Positions 24,083 through 39,360 of a stretch of 39,770 nucleotides of DNA are shown here, piece by piece. The position numbers were made by a program, and so were the translations under genes. The notes beneath the pieces were generated by a model. That model saw only the letters and a list, made by a program, of their open reading frames with translations, ran no database searches and was not told the origin of the DNA. This stretch comes from a virus (lineage: Duplodnaviria; Heunggongvirae; Uroviricota; Caudoviricetes): IMG/VR virus record IMGVR_UViG_2778261456_000009, positions 1-39,770 of that record; one strand, 5' to 3'. Positions within the stretch are counted from its first letter, which is position 1, and every line of letters begins with the position of its first letter.

Positions 24083-24334
24083 CTAACAGGATGCTCTGAC
24101 TCGCAATTCATCCAGCAGTTTATCATTTCCCATAATGTCACTTACCCTCATCGGTAAAAAGATTGCCTTTCGACCATTACGGTACATCATTGATTTTGGG
24201 GTTTCAGGGAAGTAATCCATTTCGACTATAACTGACAGGTCATCACGACGTATGACTGCGTATTTGCTACTAAATAGTTTCTTTATTTTTTCCACGATGC
24301 CTCCAGGTTTATAAGGACAAACGGTTATATCCAC
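24083..24334 (-). CDS. Hypothetical protein (weak call)
   Basis: 83-aa ORF with GTG start and no RBS; adjacent to AT-rich island. Confidence 0.25.
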   Translation of the reverse strand: MDITVCPYKPGGIVEKIKKLFSSKYAVIRRDDLSVIVEMDYFPETPKSMMYRNGRKAIFLPMRVSDIMGNDKLLDELRVRASC

Positions 24335-24470: not shown

Positions 24471-24479
24471 AGCACGCAA

Positions 24480-24501
24480 CAAAAAACCCGCCGAAGCGGG
24501 T
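24480..24501 (-). terminator. Intrinsic terminator downstream of hok
   Basis: Minus strand CCCGC-TTCG-GCGGG followed by TTTTTTG. Confidence 0.55.
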
Positions 24502-24570
24502 TTAGTGCGGGTGCGTTGAGGATGCCTGACACATGAGAGGTGGCGAGGGATTTCTCCCCCGCCGGGTCTC

Positions 24571-24726
24571 TTACTCCTCAGATTCGTAAGCTGTGAAGAC
24601 AGCGACCTCCGTCTGGCCGGTTCGGATTCGTACCTCGCAGAGGTCTTTCCTCGTTACCAGTGCCGTCACTATGACGGTTAAACAGATGACGATCAGGGCG
24701 ATTAACATCGCCTTTTGCTGCTTCAT
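24571..24726 (-). CDS. hok: Hok/Gef-family type I toxin
   Basis: 51 aa MKQQKAMLIALIVICLTVIVTALVTRKDLCEVRIRTGQTEVAVFTAYESEE, near-identical to recalled HokD/RelF and Gef; AAGGAG RBS. Confidence 0.85.
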   Translation of the reverse strand: MKQQKAMLIALIVICLTVIVTALVTRKDLCEVRIRTGQTEVAVFTAYESEE

Positions 24727-24783
24727 AGCCTGCTTCTCCTTGCCTTTCGGCGCGTAAGAGGCTAACCTACATGTGCAAGTCAT
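24571..24783 (-). CDS. mok: Mok-like in-frame leader ORF of hok
   Basis: In-frame 19-codon extension from ATG at 24783 (MTCTCRLASYAPKGKEKQA-), analogous to mokC/hokC in-frame arrangement. Confidence 0.4.
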   Translation of the reverse strand: MTCTCRLASYAPKGKEKQAMKQQKAMLIALIVICLTVIVTALVTRKDLCEVRIRTGQTEVAVFTAYESEE

Positions 24784-24972
24784 AGATATGGCCTCAGATT
24801 AATGTTAAGCGTCTTGCCGGACGCGTAATGTTAACTGGGGCTTTTCTCTATCTGCCTTTTGGTGTTCATGCCTGAGACAGATAGCCTCAAGCACCCGCAG
24901 CAATTCTACTTAACTCTCGCTTTACCGCAAACCGTTTTTACCCGATATGGGAATTCCCATATCGTAATGAAT

Positions 24973-25077
24973 TCAGTTCCCTAGTCGATCCATCAAAAAC
25001 ACAACCAGGCAGTAAACGCCCACAACAGCAATAACAGCCAGCGCACCTTCCATTGCCAGTGAAATATCATCCGACAT
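24973..25077 (-). CDS. Unlisted 34-aa hydrophobic peptide (putative small membrane protein)
   Basis: MSDDISLAMEGALAVIAVVGVYCLVVFLMDRLGN; ATG preceded by AAGGAGG at ideal spacing; one predicted TM helix; below track size cut-off. Confidence 0.35.
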   Translation of the reverse strand: MSDDISLAMEGALAVIAVVGVYCLVVFLMDRLGN

Positions 25078-25192
25078 ATTCCCTCCTTTGGTGTGAATCC
25101 CGGCGAACGTTTTTACCCCCACCGACAAATAACATATACTAAAAAATCAATAGCTATAGCAACGCCTGTAATTGCAAAGGCTTCAGGCCAGA

Positions 25193-26023
25193 TCATTGGC
25201 GCACCTCCTGCGGCGGTTCTGGTAGCGGCATCCAGTGGGTTACTCCGTCAATTGGTTCATCGTCGTCGTACTCCAATGCGGCTATATAGAACCCGTCACG
25301 ACGAGAATAAGAAATCCCGGACATTACAATGCCATCCGAAACAACAATAATGTCACCCGTTTCTTCCGGCATTCGCTCACTACAGCTTATCCAACCATCC
25401 GGAGTTACCGGAAGCGAGAACGGCAGCACATCTCTGTGAACAAGTTTTTGCTGTGACAGGTTATCCAGAACTTTCTGTACTGCTGCATCACCGAATACAC
25501 CAAGCGCATCTGCCATAACTCCTACAACCTGATAAGCCTCAGCGCATACCGTGGATAAACCATCCGGAATTACCGGAGAGTTGGTTGACGTTTCCGAGGT
25601 TTCCCGAAAATTATTGGTTGACGAATCCTTATTTTCCCGAAAGTTTCCAGCCTGAAGCATTGCGGCGCGGCAGGCGTTCCAGCCTCTCACCTCTGCAATA
25701 GCGGCAACAGCATCAACCGCGTACATGCTAAGAGGATTAGGCATTGGTTTTTCTTCCGGTACTACTGGAACGGGTGGAGCGGCGTAGACTTCAATAATCC
25801 CATTATCAATAGGCCATTCTCCATCCTTGAGGTAGTCACTTGTGCCGTCAACTTTCTGTTCTGCAATGTGGAATGCACCTATTGGTTTTGCTTCCAGCGA
25901 TACCAGTGCAATTCGTGCCAGTTCCTCCGCTTCTTCTGCTGGCAGTACAACGTTGCTACCCGGTCCGTATGTTTCGCGCCACTGCTTGATTGTCAGCAGT
26001 CGCTCTTTGGTTATAGTGGTCAT
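25193..26023 (-). CDS. DUF551-type C-terminal domain protein
   Basis: 276 aa; C-terminus (GFYIA...THWMPLPEPP) matches recalled DUF551 signature; internal NFRE..STN tandem repeat; AAGGA RBS. Confidence 0.6.
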   Translation of the reverse strand: MTTITKERLLTIKQWRETYGPGSNVVLPAEEAEELARIALVSLEAKPIGAFHIAEQKVDGTSDYLKDGEWPIDNGIIEVYAAPPVPVVPEEKPMPNPLSMYAVDAVAAIAEVRGWNACRAAMLQAGNFRENKDSSTNNFRETSETSTNSPVIPDGLSTVCAEAYQVVGVMADALGVFGDAAVQKVLDNLSQQKLVHRDVLPFSLPVTPDGWISCSERMPEETGDIIVVSDGIVMSGISYSRRDGFYIAALEYDDDEPIDGVTHWMPLPEPPQEVRQ

Positions 26024-32477: not shown

Positions 32478-32872
32478 AGGAATACCTTATTACTGGTTGT
32501 GTGAGAACTCCAGTATACCACCGAGCCTGAAGTGGTAAAAAGACAGGCGCACAACACGAAGGCGCATTTCCGGTATTCATAAAGAGTCGGTCTTGTCTGT
32601 TAAATTTAAATGGTGGGAGTGCGCCTCCGGTTGTAAATAACGACATTGCTATGTGTAGTCTTTGGCGGCATCAGTTCTACTCCGTGGCTGCCCTGCCGCC
32701 CCTTTTTAAAGTGAATTTTGTGATTCGGTGAATGCGGCTAAGCGCACGCGGCACAGTTAAAAGCATCAGTGTTATGGGTGGATTATCCGGCGTTAATTGT
32801 TAACTGGTTAACGTCACCTGGAGGCACCAGGCACCGCATCGACAAAATTCATTTGTAAAAATGGAGATAATT

Positions 32873-37230: not shown

Positions 37231-37425
37231 ATGAGATATGACGATGTTAAACCATGTCCGTTTTGTGGTTGTCCATCAGTAACGGTGAAAGCCATTTCAG
37301 GATATTACCGCGCGAAGTGTAACGGATGCGAATCCCGAACCGGCTATGGTGGAAGTGAAAAAGAAGCACTCGAACGATGGAATAAACGAACCACTGGAAA
37401 TAATAATGGAGGTGTTCATGTATAA
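37231..37425 (+). CDS. ralR: RalR (Lar), restriction alleviation protein
   Basis: 64 aa MRYDDVKPCPFCGCPSVTVKAISGYYRAKCNGCESRTGYGGSEKEALERWNKRTTGNNNGGVHV matching recalled RalR. Confidence 0.9.
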   Translation: MRYDDVKPCPFCGCPSVTVKAISGYYRAKCNGCESRTGYGGSEKEALERWNKRTTGNNNGGVHV

Positions 37426-37606
37426 AATTACCGCCACTATTGAAAAAGAAGGTGGCACTCCTACTAACTGGATAAGATATTCAAAATCTAAATTAACGAA
37501 ATCAGAATGCGAAAAAATGCTCTCAGGGAAAAAAGAAGCAGGCGTTTCCAGAGAGCAGAAAGTAAAACTGATAAATTTTAATTGCGAGAAACTTCTGTCC
37601 TCGTGA
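37418..37606 (+). CDS. ydaC: YdaC-like protein
   Basis: 62 aa MYKITATIEKEGGTPTNW...; overlaps ralR stop by 8 nt; gene order as recalled for Rac. Confidence 0.7.
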   Translation: MYKITATIEKEGGTPTNWIRYSKSKLTKSECEKMLSGKKEAGVSREQKVKLINFNCEKLLSS

Positions 37607-39133: not shown

Positions 39134-39174
39134 AGACGCTTGCAACTAATTGATTTTAAATACAATTAAAAAGA

Positions 39175-39201
39175 GACCGAATACGATTCCTGTATTCGGT
39201 C
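39175..39201. repeat. Hairpin GACCGAATAC-GATTCCT-GTATTCGGTC, with a direct copy of the arm at 39090-39100
   Basis: 10-bp perfect stem; AAAAAGACCGGAATAC at 39085-39100 repeats the left arm context. Confidence 0.4.
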
Positions 39202-39360
39202 CAGGGAAATGGCTCTTGGGAGAGAGCCGTGCGCTAAAAGTTGGCATTAATGCAGGCTTAGTTGCCTTGCCTTTTAAGAATAGATGACGACGCCAGGTTT
39301 TCCAGTTTGCGTGCAAAATGGTCAATAAAAAGCGTGGTGGTCATCAGCTGAAATGTTAAA

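Follow-up and report, generated by a model that had tools for sequence, protein, structure and literature searches.

The window, the whole stretch of 39,770 nt of viral DNA that was analysed, contains a complete hok/mok/sok type I toxin-antitoxin locus at 24480-24908. Directly upstream of it lie two short ORFs for hydrophobic peptides of 34 and 27 residues, together with a palindrome and a pair of direct repeats, and the region is framed by a DUF551-domain gene and a Rem-like gene (Table 1). The setting appears to be a Rac-like lambdoid prophage, within its early-right operon (replication to nin/Q). Both the hok locus and the 34-codon ORF, to which an initial annotation had drawn attention, are real and are already on record.

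Table 1 Positions of the hok/mok/sok elements, the upstream peptide genes and their neighbours in the window.
Feature	Position	Strand	Basis
DUF551-domain gene	25193-26023	-	Pfam PF04448, E 1.2e-15; upstream gene of the operon
27-aa hydrophobic ORF MIWPEAFAITGVAIAIDFLVYVICRWG	25113-25196	-	Start codon shares an ATGA with the DUF551 stop codon
Direct repeat, copy 1	25108-25118		The 27-aa ORF terminates within it
34-aa single-TM microprotein gene	24973-25077	-	WP_001278450.1 / ECs_5710 / XECs145; SD AAGGAGG at 25082-25088
Perfect 22-bp palindrome CGATATGGGAATTCCCATATCG	24943-24964		Between the 34-aa ORF and the hok promoter
Direct repeat, copy 2 (CGTTTTTACCC on +)	24933-24943		Exact 11-mer, present twice, 175 bp apart
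hok promoter	24903-24930	-	-35 TTGCGG 24925-24930, -10 TAGAAT 24903-24908; aligned with 933W, Tritos and R1-type loci
hok mRNA, full-length, ~417 nt	24480-24896	-	+1 at 24896, where the Rfam RF01794 match begins with GGGUGCUUGAGG
tac (5′ translational-activator element)	24885-24896	-	Full-length MFE structure has nt 1-12 paired with 24509-24521
Sok antisense RNA, ~70 nt (predicted)	24775-24848	+	Corresponds to the annotated sokW misc_RNA of AF125520
mok ORF, 70 codons, in frame with hok	24571-24783	-	ORF list; same arrangement annotated in 933W and present in an R1-type plasmid locus
Sok promoter (predicted)	24740-24768	+	-35 TTGCCT 24740-24745, 17-nt spacer, -10 TAACCT 24763-24768
hok CDS, 51 aa	24571-24726	-	Pfam PF01848; identity to HokW, K-12 HokD and R1 Hok
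fbi (fold-back inhibition element, CCUCAACGCACCC)	24509-24521	-	MFE pairing with the mRNA 5′ end, one bulged C
hok intrinsic terminator	24484-24503	-	8-bp GC-rich stem followed by a T-run
Rem-like 83-aa gene	24083-24334	-	phrog_1813, E 2.5e-34; downstream neighbour, as in the K-12 Qin order hokD-rem

The toxin gene bears out its earlier description as a near-canonical hok with an in-frame mok and a terminator of its own. Its product matches Pfam HOK_GEF (PF01848) with an E value of 1.2e-23 and 82.9 bits (cutoff 22) and phrog_251 with an E value of 6e-33, and is 94% identical to HokW (48/51), 98% identical to K-12 HokD (50/51) and 46% identical to R1 Hok. A full-length match to Rfam RF01794 at 24721-24896(-) scores 113.7 bits (gathering score 59); this covariance model spans the hok mRNA from +1 to the hok AUG, and the match lies on the hok strand. 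The homologous hok promoter of phage Tritos (TTGGCG-17-TAGAAT) was found by the promoter scan, and the copy in the window fell under the scan threshold. The hok -35 is a poor match to the consensus, its assignment resting on homology. Folding of 24478-24896 (419 nt) gives -173.8 kcal/mol (z = -7.4) and pairs the 5′ tac element with the 3′ fbi element, and in an in-silico fold of the mRNA deprived of its 3′ end the 5′ nucleotides rearrange into a local 5′ hairpin.

The antisense RNA, which had been expected on the plus strand at 24750-24850, was delimited at ~24775-24848, so the expectation was right within a few bases. A predicted promoter precedes it, at a position homologous to that of R1 TTGCGC-17-TATCCT (alignment A5), and the predicted RNA consists of a single-stranded 5′ tail, a long terminator hairpin and a U-tail, with a fold of -29.7 kcal/mol (z = -4.7). 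The stretch complementary to Sok contains the SD and AUG of mok. The Sok -10 hexamer is a poor consensus match that rests on homology, and the ends of Sok are predicted.

Together, these elements suggest the following model of regulation. The hok mRNA (24896 to ~24480, minus strand) would be made from its own weak promoter and kept inert through base pairing between tac at its 5′ end and fbi near its 3′ end. Sok, transcribed from a separate promoter within the mok/hok leader, would pair with the ribosome-binding site and start codon of mok, leaving mok and the coupled hok untranslated. Upon loss of Sok, Hok would be made and inserted into the inner membrane, which it would damage. [quoted passage not shown] 2021, PMC8621323). 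In Sp5, Sok is lost after RecA-dependent prophage induction and Hok roughly doubles phage release, and a mutated sokW promoter leaves the Sp5 homologue without antitoxin activity (PMC8621323). By homology with this validated pair, whose HokW is 94% identical, the Hok of the window would be toxic and its Sok would be a functional, neutralising antitoxin.

The 933W/Sp5 hokW-mokW-sokW locus (AF125520) shares with the window the gene order, the in-frame mok and the position and hairpin of Sok, and there too DUF551/ea-type genes lie upstream of the locus and the 27-aa ORF immediately precedes it. From promoter to fbi the two DNAs are ~93% identical (~93% mean column identity over 500 nt). The three differences in Hok are C-terminal residues, the terminators differ, and the locus occupies the replication-to-Q interval in the window but a place near the prophage end in 933W. 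Codons 2-5 of mok, and with them the Sok 5′ tail, also differ (MTCTC in the window, MLNTC in 933W), so that Sok specificity may differ between the two. The R1 hok/mok/sok (parB) locus has tac, an in-frame mok, a Sok promoter in the leader, Sok over the mok TIR, the hok SD GGAGAAG and the 5′-3′ fold-back pairing in common with the window, and the tac/fbi pairs show a compensatory difference (GGGUGC/GCACCC in the window, GGCGC/GCGCC in R1). Apart from the low identity of its Hok, R1 differs in being a plasmid rather than a prophage and in its role, which is post-segregational killing, whereas Sp5 suggests help with lysis and release on induction.

The close resemblance to K-12 HokD raises the question of whether the locus is an inactive remnant of the same kind. 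K-12 Qin hokD (relF) shares the 3′ UTR, fbi, terminator and downstream Rem-like gene with the window, and Pedersen and Gerdes (1999) reportedly found many chromosomal hok loci to be inactivated. However, the homology to K-12 starts 16 nt before the hok ATG: upstream of that point K-12 hokD has neither promoter, tac, mok start nor Sok and carries relBE instead, while the window retains every one of these elements, including the Sok promoter and terminator, as well as fbi and the hok terminator. The hok locus is also free of IS elements and frameshifts. A K-12-like remnant is therefore extremely improbable, and this part of the region adds a further intact example of an already characterised prophage toxin-antitoxin module, of a type common in Shiga-toxin-producing E. 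coli; it offers nothing new.

The 34-codon ORF had been read exactly, with its start behind AAGGAGG. It had been called unlisted, which holds for the ORF track then used but not for RefSeq, where it is annotated as a hypothetical protein, or for Sakai, where it has a locus tag. The identical 34-aa sequence is encoded by XECs145/ECs_5710 in prophage Sp6 of O157:H7 Sakai, where the gene likewise immediately precedes mok/hok within a lambdoid nin region (Huecker et al. 2017, PMC5597208). Literature searches of main text gave no match for the peptide sequence, accessions and locus tags of this gene, and XECs145 came up only among supplements. The ORF occurs in 674 of 5,426 complete E. coli genomes, so that about one in eight, mainly EHEC/STEC, carry one to five copies of an unstudied, translated membrane-protein gene. 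The peptide has a Kyte-Doolittle maximum (17-residue) of 2.95 over residues 13-29, in agreement with the published PredictProtein assignment of XECs145 to the inner membrane with one TM helix (PMC5597208).

Several observations show that this ORF is more than a chance reading frame. Across all 39.8 kb of the window, just two ATG ORFs of 25-60 codons have AGGAGG 4-14 nt upstream, namely the 34-aa ORF and its 27-aa neighbour, against a shuffle mean of 0.46. The frame is open in all 16 alleles collected (16/16), and translation has been shown in a published ribosome-profiling study of EHEC Sakai in LB, with an RNA RPKM of 79, a ribosome RPKM of 346, an RCV of 4.35 and a coverage of 0.99 (PMC5597208). 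That strain has several identical copies and may have included a spontaneously induced subpopulation, so the footprints need not reflect translation in healthy growing cells. The ORF called for XECs145 was longer, 53 codons from an upstream start (PMC5597208); the RefSeq annotation and the position of the SD favour the 34-codon form, and the longer start is probably wrong. Purifying selection acts on the ORF frame, with dN/dS (NG86) of 0.13-0.43; both alternative frames contain stops, and one has a dN/dS of 1.17. Within subfamilies, variable sites fall on codon positions 1, 2 and 3 in the ratio 3:4:16.

A diverged 29-aa subfamily is 44-50% identical to the 34-aa type and uses a GTG start. The two share a hydrophobic core, an SD at the right spacing and a C-terminal LM(D/E)(R/H)L motif. 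The 34-, 29- and 27-aa peptides have no meaningful match in Pfam, PHROGs, NCBIfam or PADLOC (none at E <= 0.01 for the 34-aa peptide), and an exhaustive phmmer search of the 34-aa peptide against 1.84 billion representative proteins returned only seven near-identical matches, leaving no distant relatives for profile building.

This narrow taxonomic range and the near identity of most copies could be read to mean that the ORF is non-functional, a young hitch-hiker on hok or simply promoter DNA upstream of it, with incidental ribosome footprints. The truncation of the ORF in some lineages in which hok stays, and the probably wrong start taken in the profiling study, point the same way. Such a reading is highly doubtful, given that two subfamilies so far diverged keep the frame, SD spacing, hydrophobic core and terminal motif, that dN/dS stays below 0.45 with a third-position bias in a frame whose alternatives are interrupted by stops, and that a strong SD is accompanied by an RCV of 4.35. 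We take the gene to encode a genuine, translated microprotein, predicted to be single-pass in the inner membrane and apparently confined to Escherichia/Shigella phages.

The initial annotation had suggested that the peptide could be a second small membrane toxin or a regulator. The toxin reading is not supported, and we consider it very unlikely that the peptide is a type I toxin silenced by its own antisense RNA over the RBS. It is indeed short and hydrophobic, with a single TM helix, its gene has a strong SD and neighbours another type I system, and on the opposite strand a TTGCCA-16-CATATT sequence (25053-25080) would start an RNA across the SD. However, this promoter-like sequence matches the consensus at 9 of 12 positions, which is at chance level (four found, against 1.4 +/- 1.3 in shuffles), and no terminator follows it in the sequence. 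Other promoter-like matches that might serve the ORF or an antisense RNA are equally at chance level, and Rfam gives no match there even at E <= 1. Type I toxin mRNAs typically have a long structured 5′ UTR, whereas only ~35 nt separate the stop of the preceding ORF from the ATG here. The peptide falls in no toxin family (Hok, Ldr, Ibs, TisB, ShoB, Zor, DinQ and others) in Pfam, NCBIfam, PADLOC or PHROG searches, and the published profiling shows it well translated in exponentially growing EHEC, which argues against repression. Homology to the Hok TM helix, with which it shares V-x-C-L-x-V, was considered and rejected, as the HOK_GEF profile does not detect the peptide.

A new observation is that this family of 29-34-aa peptides is almost confined to the position directly upstream of hok. 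In IMG/VR, 73 of the 74 loci that carry the 34-aa ORF have hok at a fixed distance of 245-255 nt, and in six of seven loci with the 29-aa subtype the hok leader lies 42 nt downstream. Among sampled hokD/W-type loci, ~28% have an intact family member and ~12% have remnants, while the family is almost absent elsewhere (five loci in 185,579 species genomes). The 29-aa subtype in addition has a conserved promoter-like TTGAA(T/G)-17-CATATT, from which transcripts would run into hok.

This linkage would be explained if the peptide were an unrecognised third part of the phage hok/sok system, one that tunes or antagonises the insertion or oligomerisation of Hok at the membrane, or whose transcription or translation, reading into the hok promoter, modulates hok/Sok expression; transcription running into that promoter and against the convergent Sok promoter might help switch-on at induction. 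The promoter-like sequence of the 29-aa subtype, the rarity of the family outside hok loci and the scarcity of phmmer matches agree with this proposal, which we nevertheless regard as rather unlikely. Many hok loci work without the peptide, among them the validated hokW of 933W/Sp5, which has no such ORF. Some hok loci hold only remnants, with breakpoints inside the ORF and hok intact, and in one Shigella locus a family ORF survives without hok. Sok-tail variants, moreover, reassort freely with the upstream ORF type and show no co-variation with peptide subtype. A distance of 40-80 bp to the hok promoter is enough for linkage by hitch-hiking, and the gene would travel with hok because of it. 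The near-exclusive linkage could also signal a functional tie, not hitch-hiking.

Taken together, the region quite probably consists of two separate things, an intact hokW/hokD-type toxin-antitoxin module and two small membrane-peptide genes upstream of it, with the 34-aa peptide outside the hok/sok control circuit rather than a silenced type I toxin. The most probable role of this peptide is that of a moron-like accessory in the membrane. In size, single hydrophobic helix, strong SD and location in an accessory region it resembles the MgtS, AcrZ, PmrR and KdpF class and phage membrane morons, a resemblance of kind only, as Pfam, PHROG, NCBIfam and PADLOC give no sequence relationship. The finding is overall an ordinary one, in which only the two peptides pose a modest, directly testable question; should either influence Hok-assisted lysis, superinfection or membrane physiology, this would matter for the induction and release of Stx phages.

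Also new is the 175-bp indel on which the 34-codon ORF is carried. The extra segment, comprising the ORF and the palindrome, separates the 27-aa ORF from the hok promoter in the window and is absent from 933W, and the two 11-bp direct repeats lie at its bounds. A transposon-like insertion was considered and rejected, as terminal inverted repeats, a transposase and a second copy in the window are all lacking; the indel is explained equally well by a deletion that joined the short repeats in the lineage of 933W. The palindrome is unique in the window, nearly invariant in ~95 loci and kept in loci that have lost the body of the ORF. As a candidate structured RNA it was set aside, since a near-invariant sequence with a single compensated pair in one locus makes no case for covariation.

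The third new observation is the 27-aa membrane ORF, conserved just upstream of the 34-codon ORF and mostly unannotated: it is missing from the annotation of the phage records checked and appears as a 'hypothetical protein' in a few GenBank entries. It is more widespread than the 34-aa gene and also occurs away from hok. We collected 21 DNA alleles, which translate into 17 different proteins with the motif M-x-W-P-[ED]-A-...-C-R-W-G. The ATGA overlap, through which the peptide gene would be translationally coupled to the DUF551 gene, is kept in all sampled copies, with a range of upstream genes.

The toxin gene encodes a 51-aa protein that matches the Pfam family HOK_GEF (E 1.2e-23) and shares 98% identity with K-12 HokD, 94% with HokW of phage 933W and 46% with R1 Hok. 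A 70-codon mok ORF lies in frame with hok, a canonical arrangement, since an R1-type plasmid locus shares it. The Hok toxin, in-frame Mok leader and dedicated terminator described in the initial annotation are all borne out.

Covariance-model searching and leader folding, both suggested by that annotation, each give a signal in the leader RNA. Rfam RF01794 ('sok') matches on the hok-sense strand with 113.7 bits (gathering score 59). As its consensus spans from the hok mRNA 5′ end (GGGUGCUUGAGG) to the hok AUG on that strand, the model represents the hok leader, with Sok corresponding to the reverse complement of the central portion; a match to this 'sok antitoxin' model marks the hok leader, not the strand of Sok. 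For the 419-nt stretch that contains the hok mRNA, the computed fold has an energy of −173.8 kcal/mol (z −7.4); in it, the first 12 nt, in the 5′ translational-activator element tac, pair with the 3′ fold-back inhibition element fbi. When the fbi-containing 3′ end is removed in silico, the 5′ end refolds as a local hairpin, matching the R1 scheme of 5′–3′ fold-back and refolding after 3′ removal. The hok 3′ UTR, comprising fbi and the terminator, also matches the Rfam model of the Salmonella Gifsy-1 sRNA IsrK over its full length, though below threshold (30.6 bits; gathering score 50; E 1.5e-4), which hints that IsrK may originate from a hok-type 3′ end.

Sok had been expected on the plus strand at about 24750–24850, and homology places it there. 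A ~500-nt alignment of the window with the 933W hokW/mokW/sokW locus has ~93% mean column identity, and the sokW annotation in 933W transfers through it to the window. The Sok promoter corresponds in R1 to columns reading TTGCGC-17-TATCCT. Folding of a 74-nt RNA starting at 24775 gives a long hairpin preceded by an unpaired 5′ tail and followed by a U-tail (−29.7 kcal/mol, z −4.7), and the predicted Sok covers the mok Shine–Dalgarno (SD) sequence and AUG. A hypervariable patch interrupts hok leaders that are otherwise >95% conserved; it comprises the mok ATG and codons 2–5, a stretch complementary to the Sok 5′ recognition tail. At least 19 variants of the patch occur among 146 loci, and could represent diversified Sok specificity among several hok/sok copies coexisting in one genome.

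Coordinates of the hok/sok locus, the neighbouring small ORFs and the prophage RNAs
Feature	Position	Strand	Basis or detail
hok terminator	24484–24503	−	GC-rich hairpin and T-run, end of unit
hok mRNA stretch folded	24478–24896	−	419 nt
hok 3′ UTR, IsrK match	24481–24562	−	Rfam, sub-threshold
tac–fbi pairing	24896–24885 with 24521–24509	−	Folding
Hok CDS	24571–24726	−	HOK_GEF
RF01794 match	24721–24896	−	Rfam
mok start	24783	−	In frame with hok
Sok promoter	TTGCCT 24740–24745, TAACCT 24763–24768	+	17-nt spacer; alignment with R1-type locus
Sok	24775–24845	+	sokW annotation transfer
Hypervariable patch	24769–24790		Complement of Sok tail
11-bp direct repeats	24933–24943 and 25108–25118	+	Exact copies
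22-bp palindrome	24943–24964		Perfect
34-aa ORF	24973–25077	−	AAGGAGG at 25082–25088
27-aa ORF	25113–25196	−	Hydrophobic; ATGA overlap with DUF551 stop, AGGAGG upstream
DicF sRNA	32650–32701	+	Rfam
RalA	37424–37602	−	Rfam; antitoxin RNA of RalR type I system
RyeA/SdsR	39164–39308		Rfam; chromosomal pair, right edge of window

The Sp5/933W homologue is a type I toxin–antitoxin (TA) system by experiment (PMC8621323). HokW causes growth arrest and is neutralised by sokW from its own promoter; after mitomycin C, sokW vanishes and HokW is produced in a RecA-dependent manner, and deletion halves phage release (PMC8621323). The scenario of an inactive remnant like K-12 hokD, raised initially, does not apply: homology of hokD to the window begins only 16 nt upstream of the hok ATG, and relE replaces everything before. 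Both this module and the small ORF beside it are on record, the former characterised, the latter annotated and reported as translated.

The sequence and SD of this 34-codon ORF are as first described, and a scan of the whole window for ATG ORFs of 25–60 codons with AGGAGG 4–14 nt upstream returns only it and the 27-aa ORF directly upstream (shuffle mean 0.46). Although absent from the ORF track first consulted, the ORF is not unlisted: it is WP_001278450.1 in RefSeq and ECs_5710 in O157:H7 Sakai prophage Sp6, directly before mok/hok. The exact protein is found on ~1,000 contigs of a public collection, where several 1–2-residue variants are equally common, and a 164-bp cassette core occurs in 674 of 5,426 complete E. 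coli genomes, at 1–5 copies each and mostly in STEC/EHEC serotypes. In ribosome profiling of Sakai the ORF is XECs145, in a longer form with its start called further upstream, and has an RNA RPKM of 79.1, ribosome RPKM of 346.1, RCV of 4.35 and coverage of 0.99 in LB (121, 150, 1.14 and 0.84 in BHI); it was classed 'real', with a predicted inner-membrane location and a single predicted TM helix (PMC5597208).

A diverged 29-aa subfamily (MLVLKCALAIAAVMAIYCLAVVLMDRLSD), 44–50% identical to the 34-aa type, starts at a GTG five nt after AGGAG(G) and is carried by phages Tritos, HannyBb, Evi and mEp460_ev081, E. ruysiae and Shigella. Both subfamilies have a hydrophobic core, a YCL motif and a C-terminal LM(D/E)(R/H)L. 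The frame is open in all 16 alleles of the family, Nei–Gojobori dN/dS is 0.13–0.43, and variable sites within subfamilies distribute 3:4:16 by codon position; the other two frames both contain stops, and one has a ratio of 1.17. Because of the published profiling, the diverged open subfamily, and the open alleles and their dN/dS, the 34-aa ORF is a gene, with both the conservation and the ribosome occupancy on which the initial annotation had made its reality depend.

Homology searches with this predicted single-TM peptide gave no family match in Pfam, PHROG, NCBIfam or PADLOC. Exhaustive phmmer against 1.84 billion representatives retrieved only seven near-identical sequences. Scanning 185,579 species, one genome each, yielded five loci of the family: two from Escherichia/Shigella and three on 2.6–3.3-kb MAG contigs, which are probably mis-binned phage DNA because they differ very little in sequence from the phage locus of Tritos type. 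The suggestion of a second small membrane toxin finds no support here. Only ~35 nt lie between the preceding stop codon and the ATG, leaving no long 5′ UTR; a search of the ORF's own strand found no promoter-like site, and the opposite strand gave only a chance-level promoter-like match and no Rfam hit at E ≤ 1. We therefore consider a silenced type I toxin unlikely; high ribosome occupancy in growing cultures also speaks against it.

Of 80 IMG/VR loci retrieved with the peptide, 74 have enough flank, and hok follows the 34-aa stop by 245–255 nt in 73; the other retains the hok leader with a disrupted CDS. The 27-aa ORF is upstream in 87/87 loci of the 34-aa type. The distance from the end of the 29-aa subtype to hok +1 is 42 nt in 6 of 7 independent loci, and one Shigella genome carries this subtype without hok. 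Such near-constant company would suit an obligate partner of hok, yet we consider this improbable when the sampling is reversed. Among 80 hok-anchored loci classified, 76 have the leader: 7 carry the 34-aa type, 14 the 29-aa type, 9 remnants (last codons only or palindrome only), 17 the 27-aa ORF abutting the promoter and ~12 an unrelated 65-aa two-TM ORF, the rest having unrelated sequence. These reciprocal counts show that the peptide gene is nearly always with hok, whereas hok is often without it, as in the validated hokW of 933W; Sok-tail variants and upstream ORF types also combine freely, with no fixed pairing. Our reading of the linkage is that a small, independent gene physically hitch-hikes with hok. 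This junction repeatedly harbours small hydrophobic ORFs; the 65-aa ORF (…MEKVDVLILIFGYINALFLGVFMAVMCIEYWR) lies ~90 nt upstream of hok +1 in L100, L102, L106 and other IMG/VR loci.

Relative to 933W, the window has an extra segment of 175 bp that is bounded by the direct repeats (CGTTTTTACCC on the plus strand) and contains the SD, the 34-aa ORF and the palindrome. In the 'empty' arrangement, the 27-aa ORF stops inside the 11-bp motif, immediately before the hok −35, and some other phages have the palindrome alone, or the last ORF codons alone, next to hok. Either an insertion or a deletion between short repeats could account for the difference. The 27-aa ORF (MIWPEAFAITGVAIAIDFLVYVICRWG) has 21 DNA alleles with many synonymous differences and 17 protein variants of the form M-x-W-P-[ED]-A-...-C-R-W-G. 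A tblastn search located it in 90 phage records, where it follows DUF551, ea22 or EaA genes; some copies are distant from hok, adjoining xis/int in Stx2a_WGPS2 and PhiR12_4 or lying in lytic phage Av-05. Neither three phage records checked in detail nor the RefSeq regions of the closest relatives of the window annotate it as a CDS, and a few GenBank entries list a 'hypothetical protein'; it appears to be a genuine microprotein that has mostly gone unnoticed.

The window is an E. coli lambdoid prophage resembling Rac, and RyeA/SdsR within it shows that the prophage end adjoins ryeA/sdsR. In the closest complete genome, the minus strand reads cro-like HTH, ydaT, replication genes (ydaV), DUF1627, two ea22-like genes, DUF551, a 105-nt hypothetical gene, Hok/Gef, a Rem-like gene, DUF1367, DUF1364, DUF1133, lysis genes and terminase. 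By this order, hok and the small ORFs belong to the early-right operon and lie between the replication genes and the late-gene activator. A lysogen would transcribe hok and Sok from their own promoters, with Sok blocking translation of mok and thereby of hok, and the full-length hok mRNA would also be folded shut. Upon induction, by homology with Sp5, Sok would be lost, and Hok would damage the inner membrane and aid lysis. Induced early-right transcription would traverse DUF551 and both small ORFs, enter hok and meet the Sok promoter head-on, and we infer that this read-through could contribute to Sok loss. Both peptides would be translated from this upstream transcript, the 27-aa ORF by coupling through the ATGA overlap and the 34-aa ORF from its own strong SD, and both are predicted to insert into the inner membrane. 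The initial finding is correct but ordinary.

The 29-aa subtype has a promoter-like TTGAA(T/G)-17-CATATT ~35 nt before its SD (2450–2480 in locus L004, ~2432–2465 in locus L005), kept in two otherwise diverged upstream contexts. As the upstream gene is divergent in phage Tritos, the 29-aa ORF needs its own promoter there, and transcripts from this putative site would read into hok. Separately, a repeat search (family D1) shows that the 34-aa ORF 5′ UTR (25087–25106) resembles nt 20–39 of the hok leader (24858–24877) at 15 of 20 positions, including ACACCAAA, possibly by chance.
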